Shown here one piece after another: positions 4,509 through 48,606 of a stretch of 64,000 nucleotides of DNA. The notes below the pieces were generated by a model. The model did no database searches. It saw only the letters and a program-made list of their open reading frames with translations, and was not told where the DNA came from. Location: positions 4,730-68,729 of IMG/VR virus record IMGVR_UViG_2897748404_000006; one strand, 5' to 3'. Source of the stretch: a virus. Lineage: Duplodnaviria > Caudoviricetes. The position numbers were made by a program, and so were the translations under genes. The stretch's first letter is position 1. Every line of letters starts with the position of its first letter.

Positions 4509-4748
4509 TTAGTTTACTATGATTATATCCGTTTTAAATATGTCTGTGATAATTTGTGTAGCCGTAGGGACGGTTTCCTTATCTATGTACCAGTAGAGTT
4601 CTTTTTGATAGTCTGCCAAGATGTAACACTCCTTTGTTTGTTCGTCTGTGGCATCGATCTGGTTTTTAGCATAGCCTAAAGCTTCTAATACTTCAACCGT
4701 GTGATCGAGGTTTGACTTGATTAAGCAAAATTTGTTTTTTAAATCCAT
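4509..4748 (-). CDS. Hypothetical protein
   Basis: ORF track, operon context. Confidence 0.65.
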   Translation of the reverse strand: MDLKNKFCLIKSNLDHTVEVLEALGYAKNQIDATDEQTKECYILADYQKELYWYIDKETVPTATQIITDIFKTDIIIVN

Positions 4749-5047
4749 TATGCGTGTCCTTTATATGACAGGTAACTATCAAGTTGTGCCTTGGTTATAA
4801 TGTATTTACGTCCTGCTTTTTTACATTCTAAATAGCCCTCTCGAATATGAAGTCGTAGTGTTTCAGTATGGACACCTAGCATTTTAGAAACCTGTTTAAC
4901 GGTAAAGATTTCTTCCCCTTGTTCTTTGGTGATATGTGCTAGGATTCTATCAATTTTAGAACCTATATTTCTGTGAATTGATTTTTCTACAAGAGCCTGT
5001 AAGTCAGACTCTTCCATCCCTATTAAGTGGATTTGAGTTTCCTTCAT
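4748..5047 (-). CDS. Excisionase-like HTH (HTH_17/MerR-type) DNA-binding protein
   Basis: FTVKQVSKMLGVHTETLRLHIREGYL..KAGRKYII motif; first gene of the early leftward operon. Confidence 0.85.
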   Translation of the reverse strand: MKETQIHLIGMEESDLQALVEKSIHRNIGSKIDRILAHITKEQGEEIFTVKQVSKMLGVHTETLRLHIREGYLECKKAGRKYIITKAQLDSYLSYKGHA

Positions 5048-5111
5048 TTTAAAAAAATTATATACGGTTTGAGAAGCTAGATAATAGCCTCATTTAAAAT
5101 CTTGATTGTGC

Positions 5112-5268
5112 GCTCGAATTGAGCCGGATTCTTTAGGTGATTTCTGACGTATGTCTGCTCGAAGTAGAGCCGAATTCTTTAAAATATTGTACGCGAAGTA
5201 CTGCTCGAATTGAGCCGGATTCTTTGGTAATCTAAATGTAATTTTGCTCGAATTGAGCCGGATTCTTT
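5112..5268. repeat. Mini array: four 23-24 bp direct repeats (GCTCGAATTGAGCCGGATTCTTT) with unique 20-22 bp spacers
   Basis: Repeats at 5112-5134, 5157-5180 (variant GCTCGAAGTAGAGCCGAATTCTTT), 5203-5225 and 5246-5268; each contains a GCTC/GAGC inverted repeat; non-coding. Confidence 0.9.
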
Positions 5269-5465
5269 AAATAGTAACTTACAAGAGATTCGCTTTTGGG
5301 AATACTTAAGCTGAATTATGTGTAAGCTTGTGTTTTAGAGGGATACCAAATTAAACTATTTTTTTGATATAACAACGGTTTTATTCGTTTTTTTTAAACA
5401 TAGTTATTAAAATACGTGTGTTTCGTACAAAAACATAACACTCACAGGTATTGGGAAACATTGGG

Positions 5466-8400
5466 TTAATTTCCCTCTCTTCTTTCTTTCACTGCTTTAG
5501 TTAAGGCTCTGGTTTTTTGAGATTCTTTAGCCCTAACTTTTTCCATTTTCTCTTCAACATCTTCTGTGGTTTCTAACCACCCGTTTGTTTTGTATCGAGA
5601 ATACATGAGCCAATTTCTAAAATCATCCATTTCTTTTTCACCTGTGGCATACTGGTAATTTAGATACGTAAATTTCTTTACATTGCTGTAAGGCAGACCT
5701 GTAAGCATTTCTATTCCGATACCCAATGCATCGACCAGTTGTTCGGGGTCTTCTGTTTTATAAAACTTTTTGCCCTTGCTATATACTTTGTTTATTTTAC
5801 TACCAAAAGATAACGGGCTAAATTCAAACGGTTTTTCTTTATATTGGTTGTAGGCGTGTTGTACCATCGGTGCTATAATAGGCATTGACCACAACGTTGC
5901 ACTTAACGGGTTTCCTTTTATTATTGCTTCCTCTATATCATCCTCTTCAAAATCCAACGCCCCTTGTACTAAAGGGAATAAAGCAGGAAGCACTACACCG
6001 TAAACAATTAAATTTCTTCCATCCTCCCATGTTGCCTTACCTCTTTGTATATTTCTTACAGAGTCCCTTATTTTTTGGAAATACTGTATTTGTGAACTCA
6101 TATAGGTAGTAAACAAGTTCCCTGCCTTGTTTCTTTGATAGGCTGAAAGGTTTTCTATAGAACTAGATTGTTGGGTACTGTCTGTAAAGTTTTCAAAATC
6201 CCTCAACGCCATTTCTCGCGCTTTTTTCGGACTGTGTTTTTTAGAGTATTGTTTTGTTTTTGCATTTACATATCCTACGCCTCCTAAGATAATTCCCGCA
6301 GCATCACCATACCGAGTTAAGAGCATGAGTTTAGATGCTAAATTTGATTTTTTAGATAGTACTTGCTCGTAATCCCTAGCCATTTGTGCGGTAACATCAC
6401 GATTATAGCCCCTCTCTAAACGCTCCTTCATAAAAGGGGTGTTCATTATATCTTTATACGTCTTAAAGTTCTTTATAGGAGAACTAAAAGTTCCTGCTGT
6501 CCATGCTCTAAATCCTGCCCCTGTCATATAAGCGGGGAATGACGCTATTTGAGACATTGCAGAAGGTAGGTTTAAGGCTAACGAAGCGGTTACTGCCTTG
6601 TTTTTAATATTGATGATAGCGGTTAATAGATCATTGGCTTTTGCACCATCGTTAGCAATATCAACGATATGCTGATCTACGAGTTTCATAAACTCTTTTC
6701 CTTGTCTTTGTACAACGGCTCTACGTACTTTTTCGTTTTTAAAAACATCACTTAATTGACGTACTGCGGGTTCAAACGTAGTGAACTGTATCATGTTATT
6801 AACATATCGATATAGCACGCTTTCTGCTCCAGACTCAAACCCTAACGGTTTTCTGTGGTTTGTTCTGGCAATTACATTGGGTGACATTGCCGAGGCTGTT
6901 GTGAAATCTACATCATCAACGGATATTTCTTTTGTTTGGTTCTCTAAAACTTCGGTAGGGCTATACATTTCTGTTATAGGCATATCTACCCCAAACATTT
7001 TTTTATACGTTGGGTTAACTTTTTTGTACATATTAGGGTAAAATTCTTCCACCAGAAAATCACCGTATTTCTGTATTTCGGGATTCTTATTTATAATCCC
7101 TTGAACCGCTTCTATTGCTGCATCACTAAAACCGTTATCGTTCTTTAGTTTTTCTAAAGTGGTAGGGTTCTTTGTATACATATATAATTGCAAAAACTGA
7201 CCGAGTGTTTTATCATTTAGGTTTATACTTTTTTGAATAGTATTCCCTTGGCGATCTTTAATGCTTCCTTTAAAAATACCTAAGTCGTTTTTTTTGTCTC
7301 GTTGGTTTAATTTCTTAGATATGCTTTTGTAGTTTTTGCCTAAGACTTTTTTCTTTCCGTCCAATAATTCTTTATAGACTTCTTGATTCATTTTGTCTTT
7401 GCTTCTCCTTGCTGATTGCACTAAATCAGCCAATCTTTTTAACTTATTATCCTTAGAATAATCCAATTGAGCCATAAGCCCTCTAAAACCTTCCATTTTA
7501 TTGAACACACCTTTTGTTTTACCAACGACATTGTTAAGCATATAAGACATAAACTTATCTGTCTTTTCTGTAGGGGATAAGCCTTTTTTAGTGTAGTCTC
7601 TTTTGTTTGTTCTTTGCGTTAAAACATCTTGAGAGTCCACCAACGCTTCGTCTTTTAAAATCGCTTGCGTTGTGTCTTCACGGTTTTTTGTTTTTTCGGC
7701 TAGATCTTTTTTAGCCTTTTCGTTAAATTTGGCTTTTCCTTCAAGCAATAAGGCTTGAAGGTTATTATAAGAATCCTCTAATAACTCCGTTGCTTTTAGT
7801 TTGGTGTCTATGTAATCAATAGTCCCTTTAGGTGTTTTCTTGGTAAGGTTATTTAAGTCGTTACCCCGTACGATCTGCAATGCCGTATTTAGGTCTGTAA
7901 TCAAATCTAAAGAGCTATCTAAGTTTTCCGTAGTGGTATTTGCCTCTGCATCCCTTATGTCCTGCAAAATATCATCGGGGGTTTTTTGTATGTTTTTTAA
8001 AATTTTACCAAATCTTTTTCGTACATCTTCCGATACTTTTTTGGCTTTAAGCTTTTTGTTCTCCGTTTTTAAGAAGGTTTGAGGCTCTTTAAGCATCTTC
8101 TTTAAGTCTTTAGCTACGGCTTTATGTCCTAGTAAAGACAACTCTGAGTCAATGGCTAATAATGCCTTATTTACTTGCGCCATTGTATTAGCCTTTGCAA
8201 GCTTAGAGTTAAGATTTGTAAGATTTGTTTTAGTGGCAACGCCTATTTTTTGATTATCCAGAACGCTTTTTATATGGGCTAACGCTTCTTTTTTGGCTTC
8301 TAGAACATCGGTCTTTTCTGTTTTGAAACGTTCTTTTAGTCTACCTTTTTCTTTTCTTCCTTGGGCTAACCCTTGTTTTCTTCCTATGGCTTTCCCTTCT

Positions 8401-11400
8401 TTTAAAGATTCTTGACGTATAACTTTAAACGGGTCTAAGAGTTGCTTTTGAATATCAATTGCGGCTTTTTGATCTTTTGCATCAAGATTTTTGTAGTAGT
8501 CAGTGCTTTTGATGTAGTTCACACCCGCACTAACAATGTCCGCAGAAGTTTTGGCGGTCTTTACTGCGGCTTGCATTGCTAAGATTGTTCCTTTAGCTAA
8601 AGGAACGAACATATTCATTCCTAAGTTTTCTTTTCCGAACTTATCTACATTCTTGTACATTTCGGCAAGGAAAGCGTCTACTTGATTTAATTTAAAGGCT
8701 TCGGCAAGGTCTACGGCTTCGGTTGCCTGTGGTTTGGCTTGGTTAGCCTTTGACGTTTTTGAGTTAGCCTGTTTTTTACCTTGGTTAGCCTGTTCCGTTT
8801 TTTTGGCAGCCTGTGGTTTGGCTTCGCTTATTTTTGGTTGGCTTTGGCTTGCTTCTGATTGGCTAGGTCTAGCACCTTCTTTTTGAACTGCGGGTCTTGA
8901 TCCATCTGGCGCAATAGTTCCGCTTTTGCTCCCAACTCCTGTAGGGGCGTTTCCAGTTGTTTCGGCTGCGTTTGCTTGTTCTCTTTCATTTAGCAAAGAT
9001 AGTATTTCATTTGTATCTAAATAATCTATAACAGAAGCGTTTTCATTTTTAGCAATTTGCTGTTCTAATGCTTTCTGTATGTATTTATCGGTTGCGGGTA
9101 GTCCTGTAAGGTTTGTAAAGGCTTGTTTTAATGGATCAACTTTTTCCTTTCTTACATTGGTATATACTTCTTGCGCACCGTTAGGGTTATTAACAATAAA
9201 GTCAACAATATCCTGTTCGGTGATCTCTGTCCCGCTATCTTCGCTCATTTCTTGCGCCAAGTCGTCAAGCTGTCTGCCCTCTGTATCGCTCAAGTAACTT
9301 TTACCGATACTACGGGTACGTAGGTTCTTATCTCCAAAGTTGTTAAAACTTTTTCCTGACACTTTACTAATATTTTCAGCAATGATCCGGTCTTTGTTTC
9401 CTACGTTTTCCTCTAAAAAGGCTCTATTATTTACCTGCTGCAAAACACTTGCTATCTCTGCGGGATTCTTAGAGTTTTCCGCAACGGAAATAGAGTAATC
9501 TTGGTTTTGTGAAGGTGGCGCAATATCTCCCTGCGTATAATCCACAGTTTCCGCATACTTATCTCTAAGTTTACGGTGTGTTGGTCTGGAAACTGGTTTT
9601 CCGTTATTGTCGGTAAAACTTATTTCTGCGCCCTCTTCACGTTTAGGTGTGTATTTTTTAGCATTATTCGCCTCACTTAATACAATTTCTTTCGGGGGTT
9701 GTACTTCGGGCTGCGTTTGCTGCTGCTCTTGGACTTGGGTTTGCTCATTGGTCGGTGCTTTTGGCTCGACTGTCTGTTGATCTTGGACTGCTTCATCTGT
9801 CTTTGGTGTTACGGGTTCATTTAATATTTGTTCTTTTTTCTCTGACTTCTCAACGAATTCTTTGTTTTTACTGTCTAGAACAATCTCTTTTGTTTGTGGT
9901 GACATAGATTGATCTTCTTGAATTTCTTGTGCTGTCTGTGTTAATTCTCTAATCTGCTTATCGATATCTAAAACTTCCTGAATTTTTTCAGGGGTCATAG
10001 ATTCAACTTTATTTATTGCGGCATTTAATACCTCTACATTCCCCTTAGTTAAGGACTCTAGTTTTTTATCAATCTCTTTAACAGCCGTAGGGGATAAGTC
10101 TGGATTGCTATCTCTTTCCTTTTTTAGTTGCTCAATTTCTTTGATGTTATTATCCATCGTTTTTTTAGTGATAGCATTACCAAAGGTTTGTAATCCTTTA
10201 CCTACTGCCATAGGTGCGGCTGTCATTGCAACACCTCCAATAAAACCTCCACTTGCCATTGAATCGGTCACTCCGTCCCAAACACTTTTATCTGTTTGAT
10301 CTAAATAATGAATATCAATAAGGTTTTGAGCTAATTGGTTTGCCCCTTCTGAAAAACCCTCTTTTGCAAAATTATATCCTGTTTTAGTTACGAATTCTTT
10401 TGTGAATTGTTTAAATCCTTGCTGTGCAAACTCTTTTGATCCTTCACCTAGAATACTTTTAAACATTCTTTTTCCTATCCCAAAGGTAATACGCTCACTA
10501 GCGGCTTCAATTCCTCCAAAAGCCAAGGCTGCGGCATTTAATTGAAACTTAGAATAATTAGTTTCCCCTGTTTTATTAGAGTCCATTAATTCCCCTCTTT
10601 TTTGCCCTGCGGCACTTGAGCCAACGGTAACTAATCCGGCTGTCCCGCCTGTAGCTCCAATAACGGCAATGTTAGGAAGTTGCGTTGCTAACTGCTGTAG
10701 TCCCCAGACTACGGCATCCCCTTTGTCTTCAATCTCTGAAACGCTTAATTGTGGTCTAATGGTCTGCTCAAAAAGTTTTTCTCCTTCTCGTAAGTCGTCT
10801 ACCATTTCCCTAGCTTCCTGAACAAGTTTTTCGTTTCTAAGTGGTTGTACGGCATCAGGAATTATGTCATCTAATAAAAATGCGGCTTCTCCTAATCCAC
10901 TTATCACTTTAGACATTCCAAGAGTTGCCATATCGGTTAAACTTTCAAGCATACCGTAGTTACGTTTTAGGTAACTAATCTCTTCCTGAAAAGAGCCTAA
11001 ATCGTCGCTGTTATTATCAAACTCAACTACATTGTTTTTTAGCTGTTTTACAATATCGTCATACTCCGTTTTTATCCCTTGCCAGTTGTCTAGCCATTCC
11101 TGGGGGACTTCTCCGTTTTCTGCTTTCCTTTTGTCGTATATCCCTTGATATTGCTGACCTTTTTGAATTAAGCTTTTTGCTTTTTCCCCTAAGATTTTGT
11201 TTTCTTTTACTAAATTTTGATTTTCTACGTCTAAATTCACAAAGTTATCTACGGCAAAATTATTGAGTTTTAATTTTTGATCTTCTGGTAAATTTTCAAG
11301 GTATTCAACACGCATACGTTTTCTATCTTCTGGTGTTTCTCCTTTAGAAAATGAAGCGGTATATTGATCGTATAGATTTGCTACATCTTGATCTACAGGA

Positions 11401-11789
11401 ACGGTTTCACCTTTACGATTTAGTAATACGGTTGGTATCTCCGGCATTGCAAATTCTGGATCAGTTCCTTGTTGTTGTGTACCCGAAGAATCGGGTAGCA
11501 TAGGAGGTCTGAAATTCGAGTCCGAACTTTGATCTTGAGAAGTAGAAGGAGAGTCTTGTTTTGGCTCGTCTTTTTTTTTTAACATAAGATCATTAAACTC
11601 TTCTTGGCTCTTAGAGAAACTATCTCCTAATTCTCCCTTTAGGGCAGTATACACTTTATCAGAATAACCGTCTTGTGTATCTAAGGCGGTATTAAATTCT
11701 TGTTCGGATTTAGAAAAACTATCTCCTAACTCACCTTTTAAGGCGGTGTACACTTTTTTTCTATATTTTGGGTCTGTTGCTGCTTCCAT
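5466..11789 (-). CDS. Very large virion internal/ejection (cargo) protein, 2107 aa
   Basis: Last gene of the virion operon; helical and K/Q/E-rich, with a Gly/Ala hydrophobic segment and a duplicated N-terminal KVYTALKGELGDSFSKS motif. Confidence 0.7.
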   Translation of the reverse strand: MEAATDPKYRKKVYTALKGELGDSFSKSEQEFNTALDTQDGYSDKVYTALKGELGDSFSKSQEEFNDLMLKKKDEPKQDSPSTSQDQSSDSNFRPPMLPDSSGTQQQGTDPEFAMPEIPTVLLNRKGETVPVDQDVANLYDQYTASFSKGETPEDRKRMRVEYLENLPEDQKLKLNNFAVDNFVNLDVENQNLVKENKILGEKAKSLIQKGQQYQGIYDKRKAENGEVPQEWLDNWQGIKTEYDDIVKQLKNNVVEFDNNSDDLGSFQEEISYLKRNYGMLESLTDMATLGMSKVISGLGEAAFLLDDIIPDAVQPLRNEKLVQEAREMVDDLREGEKLFEQTIRPQLSVSEIEDKGDAVVWGLQQLATQLPNIAVIGATGGTAGLVTVGSSAAGQKRGELMDSNKTGETNYSKFQLNAAALAFGGIEAASERITFGIGKRMFKSILGEGSKEFAQQGFKQFTKEFVTKTGYNFAKEGFSEGANQLAQNLIDIHYLDQTDKSVWDGVTDSMASGGFIGGVAMTAAPMAVGKGLQTFGNAITKKTMDNNIKEIEQLKKERDSNPDLSPTAVKEIDKKLESLTKGNVEVLNAAINKVESMTPEKIQEVLDIDKQIRELTQTAQEIQEDQSMSPQTKEIVLDSKNKEFVEKSEKKEQILNEPVTPKTDEAVQDQQTVEPKAPTNEQTQVQEQQQTQPEVQPPKEIVLSEANNAKKYTPKREEGAEISFTDNNGKPVSRPTHRKLRDKYAETVDYTQGDIAPPSQNQDYSISVAENSKNPAEIASVLQQVNNRAFLEENVGNKDRIIAENISKVSGKSFNNFGDKNLRTRSIGKSYLSDTEGRQLDDLAQEMSEDSGTEITEQDIVDFIVNNPNGAQEVYTNVRKEKVDPLKQAFTNLTGLPATDKYIQKALEQQIAKNENASVIDYLDTNEILSLLNEREQANAAETTGNAPTGVGSKSGTIAPDGSRPAVQKEGARPSQSEASQSQPKISEAKPQAAKKTEQANQGKKQANSKTSKANQAKPQATEAVDLAEAFKLNQVDAFLAEMYKNVDKFGKENLGMNMFVPLAKGTILAMQAAVKTAKTSADIVSAGVNYIKSTDYYKNLDAKDQKAAIDIQKQLLDPFKVIRQESLKEGKAIGRKQGLAQGRKEKGRLKERFKTEKTDVLEAKKEALAHIKSVLDNQKIGVATKTNLTNLNSKLAKANTMAQVNKALLAIDSELSLLGHKAVAKDLKKMLKEPQTFLKTENKKLKAKKVSEDVRKRFGKILKNIQKTPDDILQDIRDAEANTTTENLDSSLDLITDLNTALQIVRGNDLNNLTKKTPKGTIDYIDTKLKATELLEDSYNNLQALLLEGKAKFNEKAKKDLAEKTKNREDTTQAILKDEALVDSQDVLTQRTNKRDYTKKGLSPTEKTDKFMSYMLNNVVGKTKGVFNKMEGFRGLMAQLDYSKDNKLKRLADLVQSARRSKDKMNQEVYKELLDGKKKVLGKNYKSISKKLNQRDKKNDLGIFKGSIKDRQGNTIQKSINLNDKTLGQFLQLYMYTKNPTTLEKLKNDNGFSDAAIEAVQGIINKNPEIQKYGDFLVEEFYPNMYKKVNPTYKKMFGVDMPITEMYSPTEVLENQTKEISVDDVDFTTASAMSPNVIARTNHRKPLGFESGAESVLYRYVNNMIQFTTFEPAVRQLSDVFKNEKVRRAVVQRQGKEFMKLVDQHIVDIANDGAKANDLLTAIINIKNKAVTASLALNLPSAMSQIASFPAYMTGAGFRAWTAGTFSSPIKNFKTYKDIMNTPFMKERLERGYNRDVTAQMARDYEQVLSKKSNLASKLMLLTRYGDAAGIILGGVGYVNAKTKQYSKKHSPKKAREMALRDFENFTDSTQQSSSIENLSAYQRNKAGNLFTTYMSSQIQYFQKIRDSVRNIQRGKATWEDGRNLIVYGVVLPALFPLVQGALDFEEDDIEEAIIKGNPLSATLWSMPIIAPMVQHAYNQYKEKPFEFSPLSFGSKINKVYSKGKKFYKTEDPEQLVDALGIGIEMLTGLPYSNVKKFTYLNYQYATGEKEMDDFRNWLMYSRYKTNGWLETTEDVEEKMEKVRAKESQKTRALTKAVKERREGN

Positions 11790-23940: not shown

Positions 23941-24108
23941 ATGAGAAATTTGCCAATTTATTTAAAAGCTATTTTCCTATTTTTAACCATCACTATTTTA
24001 ACAAGCTGTGAATCTGAATCTCTAAATGAAGAAATAGGAATAAATGAACAAGATACATTCCAAATTGACAAAGACGAACTACAACACCCAGACGACAGGG
24101 GAAACTAA
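23941..24108 (+). CDS. Small lipoprotein/peptide precursor (55 aa)
   Basis: Below the ORF-track cutoff. MRNLPIYLKAIFLFLTITILTSC-ESESLNEEIGINEQDTFQIDKDELQHPDDRGN: signal peptide II with lipobox LTSC and an acidic tail. Confidence 0.75.
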   Translation: MRNLPIYLKAIFLFLTITILTSCESESLNEEIGINEQDTFQIDKDELQHPDDRGN

Positions 24109-24679
24109 TATTATAATAATTATACTTACTATAGGTGCAATAGTAGCTGCTATTGCACCTTTTTTACATATTTTATGTTCAAAAGAATCTAAAATAGAAC
24201 TTTTTGGATTTAGAAATGCAAGAATGTTTTTCTATGCAATTGGTTTGCCCGTCACACTTTTAATTAGTTCAATTATACTATCCTATATTTCCAACTTTAT
24301 TGGAATCAAAAAAATAAATCAAGCAGTCAGGAGTATTGCTTTTATTTTTCTTTCAGTCTCTTTCTACTATATCGTATGGACATTTTGGGCTAAAGCGGAT
24401 TTTCCACCAATAGTATACTATGGTATGATAATCTTAATTGCTTGCTCATTTGGTTTTTGTATGAATAAATTTCTTAGATATATATCCACCAGTACGAAGA
24501 GACTATTAGAGATATCAAACAAAATTCCTAATCTAGATTTACGAATAAAAACAGTTAATGATATTGCTAATATAATGCCAGATGATAATGAAGACTTAGT
24601 TACCTATAAAACAATGGTTGATGTAACTGGCGACAATTTAAAAGAAACAATTACAGAAATTAAAAAAGACCTGAATTAA
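24044..24679 (+). CDS. Membrane protein with 4 predicted TM helices and a C-terminal soluble helical domain
   Basis: Four hydrophobic stretches; overlaps the peptide gene, so the true start is uncertain. Confidence 0.75.
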   Translation: MNKIHSKLTKTNYNTQTTGETNIIIIILTIGAIVAAIAPFLHILCSKESKIELFGFRNARMFFYAIGLPVTLLISSIILSYISNFIGIKKINQAVRSIAFIFLSVSFYYIVWTFWAKADFPPIVYYGMIILIACSFGFCMNKFLRYISTSTKRLLEISNKIPNLDLRIKTVNDIANIMPDDNEDLVTYKTMVDVTGDNLKETITEIKKDLN

Positions 24680-24888
24680 TGGCGAGCAAGAATAATCAAA
24701 ATAACTTGTCAAGAAAAGAACTTCTTAGAAAACTAAAACGTGAATTTGAAGAATCTGAAACCCTTCAATGGTTTATTGAAGTTGAAATTAAGAGGTTAAC
24801 TTCGAAAGGTAGCAACTATGAAGAAATAAAAAAACTAGCAAAACTTTCAGAAGAACAAATTTTTAAATCGAAAAAGAAAAAAGAATGA
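24679..24888 (+). CDS. Small basic helical protein (69 aa)
   Basis: Coupled (TAATG) to the membrane protein gene. Confidence 0.65.
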   Translation: MASKNNQNNLSRKELLRKLKREFEESETLQWFIEVEIKRLTSKGSNYEEIKKLAKLSEEQIFKSKKKKE

Positions 24889-24892
24889 GAAA

Positions 24893-25345
24893 TCAAGAAA
24901 CATCGTTGTTTTCCTTTAGACCTGTAAGATAACTAGAAATTATGTCATAAAATTTATCATCTTTTATGAGTTCTAGTAATTTTTGAGAAGCAAACGTATT
25001 GATCTCTTTACCAATTATATACTTAAATGCGCTCTGTATCTCTTCATCAACAGTTATTAAACGAATTAATTTATCCTTTAATTTTTCGTCGACATCATTT
25101 TCTTGTAGTATTACTTCTTTTGGCTTACTGATCGTCGTAGAATCAGAAACTTTTAGTTCACCTTTTATAAGCCAGTTAAGATTTACATCAGGGTAATATG
25201 ATATAAATTTTAATATGTTATCTTCTGTTATACCGCTCTTACTATCCAATACGCCCCTAGTAATACCAGTCTCTTTGTAAAACTTGTATTTTGTTATACC
25301 CTTGGCGGCAATATACTCAAGCATCCTTTTCTTTATAGACGACAT
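24893..25345 (-). CDS. CI/Xre-like phage repressor (Bacteroidota type)
   Basis: IKKRMLEYI..KGITKYKFYKETGITRGVL...I.KFISYYPDVNLNWLIKG HTH; no recognisable S24 peptidase domain. Confidence 0.85.
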   Translation of the reverse strand: MSSIKKRMLEYIAAKGITKYKFYKETGITRGVLDSKSGITEDNILKFISYYPDVNLNWLIKGELKVSDSTTISKPKEVILQENDVDEKLKDKLIRLITVDEEIQSAFKYIIGKEINTFASQKLLELIKDDKFYDIISSYLTGLKENNDVS

Positions 25346-25383
25346 TTTTTGTTCTTTTTATAGTATAAACAGATTATTTTGCT

Positions 25384-25447
25384 TATATTTGGTATATTAA
25401 CCAATATATTATAACAAACATACAACATATTACGGTTAAACCGTAAT
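25384..25447. promoter_or_regulatory. Divergent promoter/operator switch region
   Basis: Plus-strand TATATTTG at 25384-25391, minus-strand TATGTTTG at 25415-25422, and palindrome ATTACGGTT-A-AACCGTAAT at 25429-25447. Confidence 0.65.
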
Positions 25448-25496
25448 TTATTACTCATATTTAACAGTATCTACTAACAAATTTAACTAAAGAGTT

Positions 25497-25775
25497 ATGC
25501 TAAAAAAAGAAATATACAATAAAAATCGGGTATTATCTCCTTTTTACACTTCAACCATGTCATACGAGAATGATATTTTTGATCTTTTGCGTATCGACCC
25601 TAATCATTTTGAAGAATGTGTAAGAAACCATAAAACCTATGCGCTTTTATTAAGAAACTGGATTAAGGAGTGTTCGGAACAAAACACCCCTACTAATAAG
25701 GTTGCAAAAAATATAGTACAGTCAGGAGTATTATACTATATGGGATTAACACCTACCTTAAAATTTAGAACTTGA
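25497..25775 (+). CDS. Hypothetical protein (start may be the Met at 25557)
   Basis: ORF track; divergent from the repressor. Confidence 0.6.
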   Translation: MLKKEIYNKNRVLSPFYTSTMSYENDIFDLLRIDPNHFEECVRNHKTYALLLRNWIKECSEQNTPTNKVAKNIVQSGVLYYMGLTPTLKFRT

Positions 25776-25910
25776 TATAATAATCCTATCATAAAGCTAC
25801 TCACGGCTTAACGACAAAAACAATCGTCATATCATTTTTGAAGTATTGAATATACTATACACTCACATCTAGTATACATACTTCTATAGAACTTGATATA
25901 CATATAGGAT

Positions 25911-26141
25911 ATGAACAGATTAAATACAAGACAGCGAGTAGAAAGCTGGCTAAATACCTTTGGTCACTTGTTTAATAAAAATGCGCTTGAACGAGAAGTA
26001 AATATATCTAAAGGAATTTTACAAAAACACTTAAAATATGGCAGGAAGATAACCAACGAGGACATTATAGAGTTAAGAAAATTAATGAAAGAATTTAATG
26101 ACTTTTTTAAAAGAGTTGAGCACTCTAAAAAAAACCAATAA
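25911..26141 (+). CDS. Small Cro-like HTH protein
   Basis: NKNALEREVNISKGILQKHLKYGRKI resembles an HTH. Confidence 0.55.
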   Translation: MNRLNTRQRVESWLNTFGHLFNKNALEREVNISKGILQKHLKYGRKITNEDIIELRKLMKEFNDFFKRVEHSKKNQ

Positions 26142-26250
26142 ATCCTATTATATAATCTTATAAAGGAAGGCAGGAGTAATACCTACATAAGTGAGTTTGT
26201 GTATAACCCCAATTTAATTGCTCCTGTGTCCTTTTTAATTTAACTCTTAT

Positions 26251-26427
26251 ATGCTACCAGACCATTTAGACGAAATACCTCCAGAGTTTCTTTTTGCCAA
26301 CTTAAAGGATTTAAACATAGATATAGGCGAATTTATGTATCAGCTTTTAAACGATAATCCAGAAGCCATAAAAATTTATATTAACATATATATAAAACAT
26401 AATACTAGTAAGCCCCCAGAGTCTTAA
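26251..26427 (+). CDS. Small hypothetical protein (58 aa)
   Basis: Hand translation MLPDHLDEIPPEFLFANLKDLNIDIGEFMYQLL...; below the track cutoff. Confidence 0.4.
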   Translation: MLPDHLDEIPPEFLFANLKDLNIDIGEFMYQLLNDNPEAIKIYINIYIKHNTSKPPES

Positions 26428-26773
26428 CCGAACTCTAAATTTCATAAAACCTACTTATGCATTTTGGTATAAAAGGACATTTCCAGATTGTTCGTTTTAA
26501 AAAGCGTTACAGATATCTGTAAGGATTTTATTTAAAGTTGTTTTACTTTTACAATGAAAAACAACTTGTGTTTAATAACCTAAAAACCAAACCTATGAAA
26601 CAATACCAAATTACCCCTAAGTAGAATCGCATAATACCCCTTTTAAGACAATTAAATTATAGCGCTGTAATTATTGTTTTAAACTCTAAGGCTTTTCTAC
26701 TTTATCAAACCCAATATATTACTTCGGGCTTGATATTTTTTAACATAAATAGTAACCATTAAATTGACTCAAA

Positions 26774-28219
26774 ATGAACAAATCATTTGTATGGGGCTTG
26801 CTATGCATTGCCCTGACCTATGCGCAGACTTCTTTTGCGCAGGACTGTACTGAAAAAGTCGCAGTCGCCAAAGATTATTTACCTGTTTTAGAATTCCTAA
26901 CAACAGAGCACAAAAAAGATTTAAAGGAAAGCATTATTCAATGCGCTAACAACGGAAACGAAGAGGCGCAATACACTATTGCAGTCCTTAATCTTTCAAT
27001 TAACCCAAGTGAAGGGCAACAAAAACTTTCTTTTACAACTATTAAGCAAAGGGCTGAAAGTGGAGATACTTCCGCGTTTGGAAAACTTGCTATGTTGTAT
27101 AAAAAAGGAATAGGAACAGACGTGAATTTAACTGAATCATATAAGTGGTTTGATAGAGCCGCAGGAGATGGCGATTCGTTTTCTACGTATGCATTAGGTT
27201 ATTTTCAAATGAAAGGTCTTGGAGAGGCAAGACAAGACTATTCAGGCGCACAAGATTGGTTTCAATCTGGAGATGAACCAATGGCTGAACTTTGGTTTTA
27301 TGTTATGCGATATTTTGGCTATGGCATTTCAGCAAACAAACCACAAGCAATTAACGCTCTTAATGCGTTGAATACCCCTGAAAGCAATACATTGGCTCAT
27401 TATTTAAGAAACCAATACGTTGAACCCTCTTCCCTGTCAAGTATAGAGGATTTTGTTATAAAAAACATGGATAACCCATTGTATAACAATCCTACAGGAA
27501 CAGCTTACGACACTAGCACCGACTTAAAAAATGAGTACACAGGGAAGTTAGTTGAAATGGACTGGAAAAAACAAACACCAACCAGAGTAATAAACGAGTT
27601 CAAATTAAAAATCTTAGATAGAGAATCATACTATCCCAGATACTCTATAACCATAGGAACAACAACTAAGACAGGTGCATTAAAAATTAATTCAGGAAGC
27701 CTACAATTAGAAAATCTTACTTTTCCTATTGAGGAATTATACAGAACAAATCCAGACAGGGATTTTGTAACGCTTAAACTTGGAGGAATAGACTTGAGTT
27801 ACGTTAAAAGCACACCTACAGAACCAAGTGAAGCCAAAGAAGTGGGACGTTTACACGCCTCTATTGTAGAGTACGATGACGAACCCGCACCACCTATATT
27901 CTTATTCCTCGATGCAGTAGATAAAGAACCAGAAGTACCGACACCACCAACACCTCCCGCAGTTGCAGAAATCACAAGTGTTTCACCTAATCCAACAAGA
28001 GGTAGAATTACGGTTCATTATTCAAAACCGGAAATAGCGGACTCATATTTAGTTTTAGATCAAGGAGCGAGAGAACTTGCAGTTTCAAAAATAAACACTA
28101 AAACAGGAGATTTTCAACATTCGTTTGACGACCTACTCTTCTATCCTTCAGGAGTTTATTACGTGAGGCTTTTTATAAATGGCAGAGCTGTAGACACTAA
28201 ACAAGTTGTTAAACAATAA
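26774..28219 (+). CDS. Secreted Sel1-repeat protein with a T9SS type-A C-terminal sorting domain
   Basis: Signal peptide; Sel1 repeats (LAMLYKKGIGTDVNLTESYKWFDRAA, LGYFQMKGLG..QDY..A.DWF); CTD VSPNPTRG...YPSGVYYVRLFING...TKQVVKQ. Confidence 0.9.
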   Translation: MNKSFVWGLLCIALTYAQTSFAQDCTEKVAVAKDYLPVLEFLTTEHKKDLKESIIQCANNGNEEAQYTIAVLNLSINPSEGQQKLSFTTIKQRAESGDTSAFGKLAMLYKKGIGTDVNLTESYKWFDRAAGDGDSFSTYALGYFQMKGLGEARQDYSGAQDWFQSGDEPMAELWFYVMRYFGYGISANKPQAINALNALNTPESNTLAHYLRNQYVEPSSLSSIEDFVIKNMDNPLYNNPTGTAYDTSTDLKNEYTGKLVEMDWKKQTPTRVINEFKLKILDRESYYPRYSITIGTTTKTGALKINSGSLQLENLTFPIEELYRTNPDRDFVTLKLGGIDLSYVKSTPTEPSEAKEVGRLHASIVEYDDEPAPPIFLFLDAVDKEPEVPTPPTPPAVAEITSVSPNPTRGRITVHYSKPEIADSYLVLDQGARELAVSKINTKTGDFQHSFDDLLFYPSGVYYVRLFINGRAVDTKQVVKQ

Positions 28220-28231
28220 AACTATCCTATT

Positions 28232-30691
28232 ATGAAATCTATATATAAAATTTTGATAATAGGTATAGTGTTCCTATTATCAGCTAACAGTCACGCTCAA
28301 TTTGAATCAAAAACAGATATTACAGATTTTGATGAATACGAAGCTAAAGCAGGTCTAAACGCCTGTTATTGTGATTCAGAATTAGCTTACAATTTACTTC
28401 TACAACGATTAGACCAATTAGAAGGTCAAAGAAAACAGGAGTGGTTAGAAGGGCAACAGGTAAGGCTTAAAAATGAAATTGACCGAAGACTCAACGAAAC
28501 ACATCCTAATTATGCAGAAGCGGAAAAACAGCTTTTAAAAAGACATTACAAAGGCGATAATGATGCAATTATAAATCCATTAGCAGAACAAGCTAGCAAA
28601 AACTCTTTTGAGGACAAGAGAAAAGTTCAACAAAGAAGAGTTGAATATAATGTTTTAACTCATAGAGACGATGTAAGCGATATATTAGCTGATTATACTT
28701 TTGGTGATTTAACAAGCAAAGGGGTTAAGATCAAGGGTATGACACGCAGTCAAATTTTTGATAGAAGAAGAGAAATTCTTGATGAAATAAACCACACCTA
28801 TAAACCCTCTGCAAATGCATCGTCTAAATTTTGGGATGGACTTAAAAAAGTTATTGACCAAGAATATATTTTAAACCGAATGGCTGAATTAGCCAAAGCA
28901 CGTTATGACTCTTATAGCGTAGAGAACAGAGTAAAAGTAATAACAAAACTACTTGTAGAGCGAAATTTCGGTAATGGATGGGGAGCATATAATGAGGTGC
29001 CCTTGGTTTATAACACTAATGAGCATAACTATAGAGATTTAGCCCTTATTAGAGCCGATCAATTAGGAAATGTACAAAGCATCCCTCCAACAGAGCCAAC
29101 AGGTGCAGAGTCAATAGCAGCTCACGCTTTAACTAATATTAGCCCAAGCGTTTTTGCTAACCTATACCAAAACGAGAAGTATAAAGACATAACAAGTGAA
29201 ATAAACAAGTTCTTTAACAGATCAAACTATCACTTTGCTTCAATACGATCATTACGTAATGTAATAAACTTTCAAGAAAGCTTATTGCCACGAGTAAACG
29301 CAAGTGATGTAAGTAGCTATGGGATACCTCCAGTATATCAGTCTGCTTCAAACACAGAATTAGCAATGTCGTTTCGTGCAGATCGTGACGCACCAAATTA
29401 CCACACATGGAGAGGAGTTGGAAACGTATTAGCAGAAATGTACGAAACCGACTTTTTACCAAACAGCTTGCAACAAGAAGGGTTTATAATAGCAAAGATT
29501 TTTAATAGTAATGGTATTAGTGTTCCTGATTGGGTTACAAACCAAGCCCTTGGAGAAATATTTGATTTTAACAAAACTCCATATGGCGGTAAACCCGGGT
29601 CTAATTTTTATTATCGTTTTGAAGTTATATTTAAACCCTCTATTGGTATACAGCTTTGGAATCAAAGTATAAATATAAATAACTTATTTGATGATCCTAT
29701 ACATATCGAAGGGGCTTCGGCACTAGCTAGAGGTGAATCTTTTAATTTTGCTTTTAGAAAAAAAGTATATGCTTTTTCTAATGCCTTAAATCTTAATACA
29801 AGTCAAAGAGATTGGCTAATTGATGATAAAAACAGGAAAGAATTTGATATTTTATATGACTTTTTTGAAAATAATGGATACAATGTTGATAATGTAGATT
29901 TTGGTAGGCAGTCAATAGTAACATTTATGAATGAAAACATGATACTTCCTGTAATTTCTTTCGATCAAAATTTTCCAAGATCAACTTACATGAAAGAGAT
30001 TGTCAGAATGAATAAATGGATCAGACTTTTCGGTAATCGAGAATTAGGACAATTTATTGAAGCTATAACACCAAACCTTCCAAGCCTGACAAATCAAGAA
30101 TTGTATAATTTATATAGCTTTACTTGGGAAGCACATAAAGACCTTAAATTAGCATATTATAGAATTCCAATTGAAACAGTTGTGGTCTTCCAACCATTTG
30201 TAGAACTTATTCTTTTTGATACAGGAATTGGGGTAGCGATTGCATTATTAGAAAAACTCCCCGCAGCAATTAGATCGGCAGAGATACTAGCAATAATTAA
30301 TCGTTTAAGATCAGCGTCTCAATTTGGAGAATTAAAACACGCCAAAACATTTGGAATTAACACATACAATTCATTAGTTAGCACATTTAAAGCTTTGGGG
30401 TTGTCAAGGTTAAAAATGGGGGTTCAATTTCATCATTTATTTGAACAACGATTTGTGACACAATTAAAAGCATTACTAGGAGCAAATACAGGGAAATGGG
30501 AAAGTGTAGTTTTAACAGTAGAAGAACACCAAAAAATTACCCAAGCATGGAGAAGAATAATTGGGTATAATGGACAAGCAGTAGGAACAAGTGGAAAAGT
30601 CACAGCTACAGCAACACTAGCAGACATTCAAGCAGCAGCTAAAGAAGTATATAAAAATTATCCAGAAATATTAAAAGCACTAGGACTATGA
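28232..30691 (+). CDS. Secreted polymorphic toxin with a C-terminal His-rich (HNH-like) nuclease domain
   Basis: Signal peptide; C-terminus QFHHLFEQRF...VLTVEEHQKITQAWRRIIGY...AAKEVYKNYPEILKAL resembles toxin tips seen on RHS proteins; followed by a coupled gene. Confidence 0.7.
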   Translation: MKSIYKILIIGIVFLLSANSHAQFESKTDITDFDEYEAKAGLNACYCDSELAYNLLLQRLDQLEGQRKQEWLEGQQVRLKNEIDRRLNETHPNYAEAEKQLLKRHYKGDNDAIINPLAEQASKNSFEDKRKVQQRRVEYNVLTHRDDVSDILADYTFGDLTSKGVKIKGMTRSQIFDRRREILDEINHTYKPSANASSKFWDGLKKVIDQEYILNRMAELAKARYDSYSVENRVKVITKLLVERNFGNGWGAYNEVPLVYNTNEHNYRDLALIRADQLGNVQSIPPTEPTGAESIAAHALTNISPSVFANLYQNEKYKDITSEINKFFNRSNYHFASIRSLRNVINFQESLLPRVNASDVSSYGIPPVYQSASNTELAMSFRADRDAPNYHTWRGVGNVLAEMYETDFLPNSLQQEGFIIAKIFNSNGISVPDWVTNQALGEIFDFNKTPYGGKPGSNFYYRFEVIFKPSIGIQLWNQSININNLFDDPIHIEGASALARGESFNFAFRKKVYAFSNALNLNTSQRDWLIDDKNRKEFDILYDFFENNGYNVDNVDFGRQSIVTFMNENMILPVISFDQNFPRSTYMKEIVRMNKWIRLFGNRELGQFIEAITPNLPSLTNQELYNLYSFTWEAHKDLKLAYYRIPIETVVVFQPFVELILFDTGIGVAIALLEKLPAAIRSAEILAIINRLRSASQFGELKHAKTFGINTYNSLVSTFKALGLSRLKMGVQFHHLFEQRFVTQLKALLGANTGKWESVVLTVEEHQKITQAWRRIIGYNGQAVGTSGKVTATATLADIQAAAKEVYKNYPEILKALGL

Positions 30692-31539
30692 TAAAAAAAC
30701 ACAGCATATTTGCGAATTGGAGAAAAAAAGATGTTGACTTTTTAGCAAATCTTGGAATCACAATTGAAGAAGGTTATTTTTCTTTTCTTATTGAAGAGGG
30801 GTCTGTTTACAACGAAATAATAAAGCATTACACTGAAAATAAAGGTTTTTTTGTAAACAGAACACCTAAAGAATTTTCAAGCAAATTTGCTGTGGTTGAG
30901 TTTTCTATGGAAGAATTGGACAATTCAAAGTATTTCGTTTTACAAAACATAGGAAAACCAAAAGGGTATCCCTTTCCTAAAAACAACTTTGACAAAATGA
31001 CCGAAGAAACATATACAAATTATTGTAAAAAATGTGAATCTAATCGTCAACAAAAAGCTCCTTTTAAAATAGAAAAAGAGCCTAAATTGTCTAAAAACCA
31101 AGTAAACTTTTCTTTCCATACAATTTTTGATGAAATGTTTTTTAATATAGATTTTTTCCAAGAGGTTTTAAAACCTCTTGGATTAAAATCTAAAGAAGTT
31201 TTAATTGGGAACACAGGTGTTCCTTCTAAAAATGTTGTTCAGCTCATAATTCCAGAAGCAGAAAGCTCTTTGTTATTAGATAATTCTGTATATGATATAA
31301 ATACCTCCTGTGAAATTTGTGATACAAAAAAATATACTCAACAAATTTTAGGATTCATGCCTTCATTTAAAACGGACTTTGATTTCTTAATATGCAAAAC
31401 GAAAGAATTTTTTGGAGAAACAGAAACCCGTCAGGCTATGAGGCGAATAATCATATCTAAAGAATTTTGTGACATATTAGTTAAACATAAGATAATTCAT
31501 TATAACACAAATGAAATTTACCCAATAACTAATAAATAA
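30688..31539 (+). CDS. Putative immunity protein with two CxxC motifs
   Basis: ATGA overlap with the toxin gene; CKKC and CEIC motifs; T.EFFG...R.IIISK.F motif; no signal peptide. Confidence 0.6.
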   Translation: MIKKHSIFANWRKKDVDFLANLGITIEEGYFSFLIEEGSVYNEIIKHYTENKGFFVNRTPKEFSSKFAVVEFSMEELDNSKYFVLQNIGKPKGYPFPKNNFDKMTEETYTNYCKKCESNRQQKAPFKIEKEPKLSKNQVNFSFHTIFDEMFFNIDFFQEVLKPLGLKSKEVLIGNTGVPSKNVVQLIIPEAESSLLLDNSVYDINTSCEICDTKKYTQQILGFMPSFKTDFDFLICKTKEFFGETETRQAMRRIIISKEFCDILVKHKIIHYNTNEIYPITNK

Positions 31540-31604
31540 ATATTATAAAAAACCATATTCGAAGAACAATAAGAAAACTCTTATATAACCTAAACAAATA
31601 ACAA

Positions 31605-32159
31605 ATGAAAAAAACAATTCTATTATTAAGTATTATAACCGCAATGGTAATGTTTGGATGTAAATCTGATGATGAAGAAGTGCCAGAAAAATTTGATCAT
31701 TTTGATTATACTCAAGAAGAAAAAAACGCAGAAATTGAAAAGATAAGGAACTACATTAAAGACAACAGCATTGAAGGAATGACAGAAACCGAGGATGGTA
31801 TGTTTTATCGTATCGAAAAAAAAGGAGAAGGACTAACTGGTGAAAATTTTCAAGATGTAACTGTTTCTTTTGAGATAAAAATTACAAGTACAGGAGAAAT
31901 TGGCTTTGGACATGGTGATAAAGATATCTATCCTAATGGTGCAATATGGGATTTTTTTGGTTTTGAAGGTCTTTATGAAGGAATAGAAGACAGTATTGAA
32001 CTAATCAATGAAGGAGGTGAGATTTTTTCGATTATTCCTCCTTATATGCATATTGGCAAAAATGACCCTAATACTGGAGAAGATATATTTGAAGAACAAT
32101 ACGATGAAATTGTGACTCTTAAACTAGAATTAAAGCATCTTATACGATATAGAAATTAG
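31605..32159 (+). CDS. FKBP-type peptidyl-prolyl isomerase-like lipoprotein
   Basis: Lipobox MFGC; I.NYIKDN, TEDGMFYRIEKKGEG, G....IELINEGG...IIPPY motifs. Confidence 0.75.
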   Translation: MKKTILLLSIITAMVMFGCKSDDEEVPEKFDHFDYTQEEKNAEIEKIRNYIKDNSIEGMTETEDGMFYRIEKKGEGLTGENFQDVTVSFEIKITSTGEIGFGHGDKDIYPNGAIWDFFGFEGLYEGIEDSIELINEGGEIFSIIPPYMHIGKNDPNTGEDIFEEQYDEIVTLKLELKHLIRYRN

Positions 32160-37096: not shown

Positions 37097-37593
37097 TTCA
37101 TAATGACTGTTTCATCCTTAGAATCGTCCTCGCTTTCTCCTATTAATATTTTCTCTAATTCATCTACTTTTTTAGAAGCCCATACTGCGTGTTCTGCGGC
37201 TAGTCTTCTCGATACAAGTGCGGATTTCATCCCGCTTTCTTTTAGTTTTTTACTTATGGTTTTATCGACGATATCTAAATTATTGTCTACCATTCCTTTT
37301 AATTCTTTGATTAGGCGGGGGATCACTTTTGTTAAATATGTGAGATCAGAAAAAGCGTCTTTTTCTTCGTCCCCTCCCAATTCAAATTTCATTCGCCCTA
37401 TTTCTTTGGCTGACCATATCACATCTTCGACGGCTAATTTTCTTGATTCTAAAGCCGCCTTTAACTCGTTTTCTTTGGTGGCAGGATCAATGTTTTTACT
37501 GACCACTTCCAAACTATTTTCTAGCATGGTTTTTAGTTTCGCCACTAGATCGGGTAAGGTTTCTTTGTAATATGATTTGCGTTTTGTTTTCAT
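37066..37593 (-). CDS. Putative terminase small subunit with an internal tandem duplication
   Basis: Immediately upstream of TerL; two ~80-aa similar halves (LKAALESRKLAVEDVIW / MKSALVSRRLAAEHAVW). Confidence 0.55.
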   Translation of the reverse strand: MKTKRKSYYKETLPDLVAKLKTMLENSLEVVSKNIDPATKENELKAALESRKLAVEDVIWSAKEIGRMKFELGGDEEKDAFSDLTYLTKVIPRLIKELKGMVDNNLDIVDKTISKKLKESGMKSALVSRRLAAEHAVWASKKVDELEKILIGESEDDSKDETVIMNWTKRKAKLG

Positions 37594-38213
37594 GTCACTA
37601 CAGCTAACAAATCCCTATTATCCATACAATAGTATACCTCACCATCTAGTCTAAATTCATAATCTCCAAAGTCCACGAAAAAAACCTTATCGCCTTTTTT
37701 TACTCCTTGCTCTTTTAGTTCATCATTTAGATATTTCACATGACCATATTGTTGTATATATCCGTGTGTATTTGATTCTATTTTTGTGTTATAAAAGTTA
37801 TCCGGTAAGGAGAATCCTTTTATTTGGTAATCTTCTTTCTTTGCCTTTATGGGTTGCACTAAAACATGAATATGATTGCATTGCCATTCATCTTGTGGCG
37901 TTGCTCTGTACATTACAATGAGATCGTTCTCAATCCGGTAATGTCCTTTTTCCTTATCCATTAAATAAATAGGGTCTGTTTTAACCCCTTTATATACTTG
38001 GTACATCAGTACGGTATGGACGACTAAAACCTCATAGCCCACTTTTATTTTAGTGACATAATCCCTTGGCACTGCAATTACTTTTCCTATACGATTGGTA
38101 TGTCTTGTCTTATCAAAAGACGGGTCTATATCCAAGGTTAATGTCCCATAGGTTACTTTATCTTTGAGTGGTTTTTTTATCTCAACGGTGAATTCATTTA
38201 AGGCTTTTAGCAT
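37590..38213 (-). CDS. Tandem GroES-like-fold protein
   Basis: Two GroES-like units (GKVIAVP..IKVGYEVLV; GHVKY...GVKKGDKVFF..YEF.LDG..YY.M...DLLAV). Confidence 0.55.
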   Translation of the reverse strand: MLKALNEFTVEIKKPLKDKVTYGTLTLDIDPSFDKTRHTNRIGKVIAVPRDYVTKIKVGYEVLVVHTVLMYQVYKGVKTDPIYLMDKEKGHYRIENDLIVMYRATPQDEWQCNHIHVLVQPIKAKKEDYQIKGFSLPDNFYNTKIESNTHGYIQQYGHVKYLNDELKEQGVKKGDKVFFVDFGDYEFRLDGEVYYCMDNRDLLAVVT

Positions 38214-48121: not shown

Positions 48122-48606
48122 CGTTTACTGCGGTAGTTGTCAACCAATTTTTGATAGGGTTTTTCTTTTTCTTCACGGATCATTGTAGCGCGATCCTCTT
48201 CCGTTGTTTTACAGAAATAGACGGGATTTATTCTATACACCCCACGTTTTGTTTTGCTTACAAGGTCGTGTTTTGCGAGTTCTATAAAGGCTTTATTTAT
48301 GGTGTTATCTGAAAACGAACGCTTACTATAGGCAGCCGCTTTATTCATGTTTTTCTTAAACAAAGCATTGTTTGAAACGTAGTTATTTCTATCCATATTT
48401 TCGAGACAAAAATCTAATACACTTCTTGCGCCTCTGCTAAGATCGAGCAGTATTGTAACCGCAGACTCGTAGGTTTTTACGTGGTCTTTTTGTGCCTGAA
48501 AAACAAACCATGATACCATTCCAATACGTCTTTCTTTTGAAAGTTCTTTATCGTAGGATAAATACCGTATTAGAGAGGTTGATTTATTCATCTTCTTCAA
48601 CCGCAA
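48118..48606 (-). CDS. RepL-like winged-helix protein
   Basis: TINKAFIELAKHDLVSK.KRGVYRINP.YF motif. Confidence 0.6.
   Translation of the reverse strand: MRLKKMNKSTSLIRYLSYDKELSKERRIGMVSWFVFQAQKDHVKTYESAVTILLDLSRGARSVLDFCLENMDRNNYVSNNALFKKNMNKAAAYSKRSFSDNTINKAFIELAKHDLVSKTKRGVYRINPVYFCKTTEEDRATMIREEKEKPYQKLVDNYRSKR

Follow-up and report, generated by a model that had tools for sequence, protein, structure and literature searches.

A short array of direct repeats lies at positions 5076-5268 of a 64,000-nucleotide (nt) stretch of viral DNA, called here the window, which comprises bases 4730-68729 of the 68,729-nt virus record IMGVR_UViG_2897748404_000006; the array coordinates follow the window numbering. 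The array is tentatively read as a guide-like one, lacking CRISPR-associated (Cas) genes (CRISPR, short palindromic repeats that are clustered and regularly interspaced), which would be transcribed and processed, would act through an effector and would be aimed at a competing myophage. This reading draws on the observed anatomy of repeats and of the unique segments between them (called fillers), on the uniqueness of the repeat, on an exact match of one filler to another phage together with its strand sense, and on the kinship of the phage matched. Read on the minus strand, the array comprises the following elements:

5246-5268, minus strand: repeat 1, an exact 23-mer, nearest to the AT-rich promoter-like side in this reading direction
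5226-5245, minus strand: filler 3, 20 nt, unique
5203-5225, minus strand: repeat 2, an exact 23-mer
5181-5202, minus strand: filler 2, 22 nt, with an exact match in the viral contigs L228 and L229
5157-5180, minus strand: repeat 3, a 24-nt variant with one additional loop base, the dyad kept and one tail base changed
5135-5156, minus strand: filler 1, 22 nt, unique
5112-5134, minus strand: repeat 4, an exact 23-mer
5076-5098, minus strand: degenerate fifth copy with the dyad GCTA/TAGC, overlapping the region 20-45 nt upstream of the start codon of the next gene

The 23-mer GCTCGAATTGAGCCGGATTCTTT (plus strand) is present in three exact copies (5112-5134, 5203-5225, and 5246-5268), and the 24-nt variant at 5157-5180 aligns with it with one extra loop base and three substitutions. 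Each repeat holds the dyad GCTC/GAGC and, on direct reading, two similar 7-nt half-sites ca. 10 nt apart. The repeat starts are 45, 46, and 43 nt apart, and the fillers of 22 nt (5135-5156), 22 nt (5181-5202), and 20 nt (5226-5245) show no mutual similarity. Identical direct repeats separated by unique fillers of near-constant length are the arrangement by which a CRISPR array is recognized. The repeat pattern occurs four times in forward and never in reverse orientation in the whole 68,729-nt record (the backwards control gave zero), with no further site beyond the array, and none of 100 dinucleotide shuffles of the window gave any match at up to three mismatches, against three observed. The original prediction had described four 23-24-nt repeats, spacers of 22, 22, and 20 nt and a period of 43-46 nt, and every measurable point of that layout is correct, as is its statement that GCTC/GAGC is kept in the variant repeat with the loop and tail altered, with which the alignment agrees. 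That the array has no function and is a leftover of local duplications is highly improbable; it is a singleton and there are no relatives to show conservation, but the repeats are identical while the fillers are unrelated, which points to selection or copying acting on the 23-mer alone, since duplication of a 45-nt unit would have copied the fillers too.

The degenerate fifth copy (5076-5098) shares 12 of 23 bases with the repeat and has a 4-bp dyad, GCTA/TAGC, in which a C-G pair is exchanged for A-T. Its score is reached at 11 of the 137,412 positions of the record, six of them belonging to the array itself and five being unrelated, so that a chance origin of this copy at exactly this place is unlikely; by arithmetic, the 64 nt separating the array from the start codon should contain about 0.002 such sites.

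Fillers 1 and 2 were scanned for exact matches in the viral contig collection. Filler 2 matches 22 of 22 nt in two contigs, L228 and L229, which are 99.7% identical to each other and represent fragments (9% and 11% complete), and filler 1 has no exact match in this collection. The G+C content of the target contigs is 33%, versus 35.7% for the array-bearing phage. They carry genes for a terminase, a portal, a head protease, a major head protein and PhoH, and the nearest relative of their capsid protein, at 57% identity, is that of the 160-kb Flavobacterium myophage vB_FspM_immuto. The match falls within the last 15 codons of a 481-amino-acid (aa) open reading frame (ORF) and ends 24 nt short of the head-protease start codon; the search with this ORF retrieved only such Flavobacterium phages. 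The identity extends over exactly 22 nt; the flanking sequences diverge on both sides at the borders of filler 2 and are unlike the repeat ends. When the 13-kb target is compared with the whole 68.7-kb record, filler 2 is the longest exact match, the next one being 16 nt long, and seven proteins of the target contig have no relative in the record (best E 0.96). As there is no protein homology between the two phages, the identity of filler 2 is not a remnant of gene homology. Fillers 1 and 3 are absent from the target records at up to three mismatches. The plus strand of the window corresponds to the sense strand of the target, so that a minus-strand transcript, running in the direction of all neighbouring genes, would lie antisense to the mRNA of the target. 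Of the readings considered, the guide-like one alone explains the exact match of filler 2.

The probability of such a match arising by chance was estimated from search statistics. With a 231-nt query against 2.3 Gb of phage records, E equals 3 for a 20/20 match and 9 for a 19/19 match, and arithmetic on the same statistics gives about 0.001 expected exact matches per fixed 22-mer in 2.3 Gb. If the viral collection is assumed to be 13-40 times larger, about 0.01-0.05 chance matches are expected per filler. An 8-kb control stretch of the phage returned 175 records at E ≤ 10, of which 34 were short and at least 99% identical, and this fits the statistic; no Flavobacteriia phage appeared among the ten commonest organism names or among the best 60 of the 175 matches. 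The filler 2 match is found in a phage of the same host group and of similar base composition, which lowers the chance reading further, albeit post hoc. The comparison of spacers with other phages advised in the original prediction thus produced the filler 2 match in the viral collection, but only chance-level matches (E 3-9) when the array was compared by BLAST with phage (50,697) and plasmid (72,556) records, among them a 19-nt match of filler 3 to Bacillus phages (E 9). No part of the array has a 22/22 match in these 2.3 Gb of phage and 7.3 Gb of plasmid records.

The array is situated in a 418-nt gap between the gene for a 2107-aa virion protein and a minus-strand operon encoding a 99-aa HTH_17 protein, a 79-aa ORF, RecT, a DUF2303-like protein, the single-stranded DNA-binding protein (SSB), and the replication initiator. 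The features bordering it are:

5466-11789, minus strand: gene of the 2107-aa virion protein (phrog_22602, E 8.2e-27), ending 198 nt before the first repeat
5347-5376, minus strand: promoter-like element (GTTG, 18 nt, TTAATTTG), proposed from a match to a consensus only
4748-5047, minus strand: gene of the 99-aa HTH_17 protein (Xis/MerR-like winged helix; Pfam PF12728, E 3.9e-10), the first gene after the array

Because the neighbouring genes are all on the minus strand, transcription in their direction meets the array before the HTH_17 gene; measured upstream from the start codon of this gene, the array spans 65-220 nt and the fifth copy 29-51 nt. The promoter-like element sits within a stretch of 75-80% A+T (about 5328-5407), and its use would place the array in a transcribed leader. 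No minus-strand terminator-like site was found in a terminator scan of positions 4700-5700. The same scan flags three of the repeats as terminator-like on the plus strand, which is antisense to all the genes in the array region, and the flagged stems are weak. The presence of the AT-rich promoter-like flank on the far side of the array and of a degenerate copy at its other end supports the guide-like reading.

According to this reading, transcription of the minus strand would start from the AT-rich promoter-like region (ca. 5376-5347), and the array would be transcribed either independently or as the leader of the HTH_17-RecT operon. In the transcript, each of the four repeats (23-24 nt) would have a short hairpin at its end and a unique segment of 20-22 nt behind it, and the unique segments would act as guides. 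Segment 2 shows full complementarity to a head-module gene, at the level of both the mRNA and the coding DNA strand, in an unrelated T4-like myophage of the Flavobacteriia type. Pairing would then interfere with the incoming competitor and lead to superinfection exclusion, either through an unrecognised RNA-guided effector of the phage or the host, or by plain antisense action, with cleavage of the double-stranded RNA or a block of expression. A more specific version, which is on the unlikely side, would be a Cas-independent guide-RNA array of a new kind, composed of a 23-nt hairpin repeat and a 20-22-nt guide, borne by a temperate phage of the Flavobacteriia and disabling the unrelated T4-like competitor; just as doubtful is its presumed mode of action, through a not-yet-recognised effector family or antisense pairing with the mRNA of the competitor's head gene.

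Several results weigh against the guide-like reading. Only one filler matches, out of two scanned in the viral contig collection, and at least one chance match in two scans has an expectation of 0.03-0.1, which is not negligible and depends on the assumed collection size. The repeat pattern has no match in 2.9 million viral contigs. Among the genomes of 185,579 species there are 62 matching stretches, and among 241 million metagenome records 113, each of them a single chance copy, with no array and no clustering. At up to three mismatches, single matches were found in 2 of 401 genomes of the class Bacteroidia and in 1 of 185 genomes of one family of this class, probably other than the Flavobacteriaceae, again with no array; the backwards control gave one. 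A working guide system would be expected to have kin, and a second array was not found. Neither Cas, Nop/Tas, and Argonaute proteins nor any other known effector were detected in 52 ORFs scanned with Pfam and ten scanned with PADLOC. The repeats (23-24 nt) and fillers (20-22 nt) are shorter than the 25-36 nt typical of CRISPR. Hairpin stability is low and does not exceed that of shuffled sequences (-2.0 to -3.0 kcal/mol in DNA form, z -0.4 to -1.6); for folds of the whole array, z is -1.24 (minus strand) and -1.77 (plus strand). In the dyad, 12 of 12 cells are paired and one pair is compensatory, yet the same is seen in 173 of 500 shuffles, and with only three distinct sequences the covariation is not significant. 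Finally, the fifth copy is 13 nt from repeat 4, as opposed to 20-22 nt between the other repeats, which fits a binding site overlapping a promoter better than a terminal repeat. The guide-like claim is fragile, given a single matching filler, a null that is estimated, and the failure to find an effector or kin. The earlier proposal of a guide array serving an effector of unrecognised type gained real but thin support from one exact 22/22 match, in one of the two fillers scanned, and gained no effector.

The search for relatives extended to the neighbours of the array. In a search of 5.8 billion proteins, the HTH_17 protein retrieved itself only, and there are no related loci in the viral or metagenome collections; its best full-length relative shows 44% identity and is encoded on a 990-nt contig. 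The protein is recorded on a sequenced bacterial contig of 168,714 nt. One homologue, 35% identical, was found in the 401 Bacteroidia-class genomes, and it has no array upstream. For the 499-aa virion protein and the large terminase, the viral contig collection contains no close relatives, and relatives of the C-terminus of the 2107-aa protein are found at 25% identity only, in a different context. Among 42 loci, 38 of them anchored by RecT, a scan for at least three copies of an 11-mer within 120 nt revealed only unrelated short-period repeats. In phi38:1, phi46:3, phi39:1, MW202828, and BI-TP1, neither the region downstream of the large virion gene nor that preceding the recombination modules contains an analogous array. 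A distant relative of the phage encoding the 2107-aa protein has two intergenic 24-nt direct repeats 40 nt apart (L046:8265-8328); the ORF downstream of them (8361-8702) shows no BLASTP similarity to the HTH_17 protein of the window, and the composition of that phage differs.

Known guide arrays resemble the element in part. Typical CRISPR repeats are 25-36 nt long and spacers are of similar size, as quoted in one report (PMC12045711), which bears out the remark in the original prediction that spacers of 20-22 nt are short for a canonical CRISPR. The virus-borne mini-CRISPR arrays described by Medvedeva et al. 2019 (PMC6858448) are likewise cas-less and intergenic, hold few spacers and have a promoter-bearing leader on one side; a spacer may be 100% identical to another virus of the shared host, and a role in heterotypic superinfection exclusion has been proposed. 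According to that report, the repeats in these arrays are those of the host and the targets are in most cases closely related to the carrier, whereas here no CRISPR array searched has the repeat, the units are shorter (23-24 plus 20-22 nt), and the target is an unrelated myophage. The RNA anti-CRISPRs (Racrs) and solitary repeat units (see Camara-Wilpert et al. 2023, PMC10651486) are also phage-borne repeat-like elements without cas genes. Racrs mimic host CRISPR repeats and need no fillers matching other phages; for the array, no such host repeat was found.

A canonical virus-borne mini-CRISPR or an RNA anti-CRISPR, borrowing the host CRISPR-Cas system by means of copied host repeats, is very improbable as an explanation of the array. 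The 43-46-nt unit resembles mature CRISPR RNAs of single-effector systems, the repeat-spacer anatomy is cas-less and intergenic, and one filler matches another phage. However, no host-like repeat and no array were found in the viral, metagenome, and genome collections, to which the host's own genome possibly does not belong, and Rfam, CRISPR repeat families included, gave no match to the repeat at E ≤ 1, which also weakens the guide-like reading. The suggestion that the phage uses host Cas proteins in this manner thus finds no backing, and the comparison with CRISPR repeats called for at the outset came out negative on both counts.

TIGR arrays with Tas proteins share with the element the use of short guides, and, in Faure et al. 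2025 (PMC12045711), they are reported mostly from phages and proviruses and are missed by CRISPR finders. The TIGR unit described there consists of two alternating 8-12-nt repeats and two spacers of ca. 9 nt, yields a 36-nt product, has box C/D motifs and is accompanied by an adjacent Nop-domain protein. In the array of the window, in contrast, each unit of 43-46 nt combines a single 23-nt repeat with a single filler of 20-22 nt, and no Nop-domain protein is encoded among the scanned ORFs; its neighbours are the virion protein, the HTH_17 protein, the 79-aa ORF, and RecT. TIGR arrays thus differ from the array in every defining feature.

The principal rival to the guide-like reading, close to it and a possibility to be taken seriously in spite of our doubts, is an operator or enhancer-like array in double-stranded DNA, in which the four repeats, together with the weak fifth copy over the promoter region, would be same-orientation sites for a phage regulator, most likely the 99-aa winged-helix protein, the filler match being a coincidence. 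With equal reservation, such an array would be expected to switch or autoregulate the recombination-replication operon. It lies directly upstream of this operon, whose first gene encodes the HTH_17 protein, and repeated sites beside or over the promoter of the adjacent operon are the arrangement by which an operator array is recognized. The model of the 99-aa protein comprises a long N-terminal helix and a winged helix (mean pLDDT 73.6), and the latter superposes at 1.4-2.4 Å over ca. 50 residues on Pukovnik Xis, BldC-DNA, RacA-DNA, the RdfS excisionase, and MerR-family domains; these fold matches are local, with a probability of about 1 and all with E above 0.001. Xis and BldC bind direct repeats head to tail. 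The dyad and the two similar 7-nt half-sites within each repeat would suit binding of this type, and the degenerate copy covers positions 20 to 45 nt ahead of the HTH_17 start codon, next to a -7-like box which, judged by the consensus, has no good -33 element. Many of the more remote kin of this domain are proteins of 160-600 aa with 3-7 tandem HTH_17 stretches (P0003, P0005, P0011, and others), an architecture which suggests arrays of direct repeats as a frequent kind of target for the domain.

The geometry of the array agrees less well with the operator explanation. Centre-to-centre distances of 45, 46, 43, and 36 nt leave, by arithmetic, 3.0, 4.0, 1.0, and 4.5 nt on a 10.5-nt turn; the sites are neither in helical phase nor closely packed, and the lack of phase implies that DNA geometry seems not to matter. 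Xis/BldC-type filaments advance in steps of 10-11 nt, far narrower than the spacing of the array. The variant copy has a 1-nt insertion between the site halves, three sites are identical at all 23 positions, which is unusual for operators, the rest of the 68.7-kb record contains no further site, and analogous arrays were not found upstream of related modules in the other phages examined. Under this explanation, the 22-nt identity of filler 2 with a phage of the same host group would be pure chance. The known operator arrays of Xis/BldC/MerR-like proteins resemble the element in having same-orientation repeats beside the gene of such a protein and a weak extra site over the promoter, but they follow steps of about one helical turn, as opposed to unphased steps of 43-46 nt with three identical sites and a filler matching a foreign phage. 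Of the helically phased DNA sites for the HTH_17 protein put forward in the original prediction, the phasing is not supported, with unphased sites persisting as a strong rival.

If the guide-like reading were true, Bacteroidota phages would carry compact arrays unrelated to any known CRISPR repeat or Cas protein, overlooked by every CRISPR finder because their units are too short; they would add a new weapon to conflicts between phages and might offer a programmable guide format of very small size. If the operator explanation were true, the array would be an ordinary cluster of regulatory sites, and exact 22-nt matches in huge viral collections would need empirical nulls.

Another, improbable, explanation is that the repeats are protein-binding hairpins in the leader RNA, engaged in antitermination, stability or translation, with the fillers being linkers devoid of a guide role. 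The coding-strand promoter-like element upstream of the array, the lack of a terminator-like site between this element and the gene, and a dyad kept in all five copies while the loop varies in size and sequence would agree with it. Opposed to it are stems of four pairs with energies equal to those of shuffles, the non-significant covariation, the lack of any Rfam family match and of any RNA-binding protein identified nearby, and the filler match, which it leaves unexplained. The structure is compatible with a role as RNA or single strand, yet it provides no evidence for one. The degenerate copy with a compensatory pair, pointed out earlier as a sign of selection on an RNA hairpin, is real in its 12 of 23 shared bases and its dyad; the argument for selection is formally not significant, given the frequency of such pairing in shuffles.

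The repeats could also be replication-origin iterons, partition sites or packaging-recognition sites, which is about the least probable of the functional explanations. They are direct repeats lying by an AT-rich stretch and by replication and recombination genes, as in an origin of the lambda O type, but the full layout of the latter fits another site. In lambda, the iterons are located inside the initiator gene O, beside an AT-rich tract. A better origin candidate in the window is found in the initiator gene at about 85-247, where an A/G-rich tract follows eight direct repeats of 11 bp, whose period of 11 is no multiple of three; this site, and not the array, which lies 4.4 kb from the initiator gene, combines iterons with an unwinding tract in the initiator gene, and it is probably the replication origin of the phage. 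The initiator is a protein of 294 aa (phrog_270, E 6e-19) with weak O-like and DnaD-like matches, encoded on the minus strand at L109:4487-5371, the ORF ending at window position 642. The gap that harbours the array has no DnaA-box-like site at up to one mismatch, no partition NTPase is encoded among the scanned ORFs, and the terminase genes are located ca. 30 kb from the array.

Promoters of a virion RNA polymerase of the N4 or crAss style were considered as well and excluded, as no DxDxD motif is present in any frame of at least 150 aa, including the 2107-aa protein. According to a preprint on phi14:2 (10.1101/2020.03.07.982082), early transcripts of this phage share no upstream motif.

The record is classified in IMG/VR as a provirus and evaluated as complete by CheckV; no integrase or other recombinase was found among its scanned ORFs. 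The virion module upstream of the array comprises a phrog_13704 capsid-type protein, the portal, the large terminase, a crAss-type muzzle protein, and the 2107-aa protein. The nearest named phages infect Cellulophaga, Flavobacterium, and Tenacibaculum, with an identity of 47.7% at best for the terminase and about 29% for the large virion protein. The terminase and virion proteins are closest to those of the ca. 72-kb Cellulophaga podophages (Pachyviridae/Pervagoviridae). A 1354-aa protein encoded at window positions 14351-18415 matches the crAss-virus muzzle families PF25729 (E 2.3e-19) and PF25731 (E 7.9e-15).

It is also worth noting that positions 24044-32159 of the window (plus strand) form an island of low G+C content (0.29-0.35), opposite in sense to the flanking modules, which may be a moron or a conflict cassette. 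It holds genes for a 481-aa Sel1-repeat protein and an 819-aa orphan, the only leads for the latter being sub-threshold Atlas matches to nuclease-toxin families of the HNH/AHH type. Elsewhere, the window encodes two Cpn10 (GroES)-like ORFs (37590-38213 and 48584-48871), a RusA-like resolvase (49581-50024), and an ArdA antirestriction protein (60837-61397).

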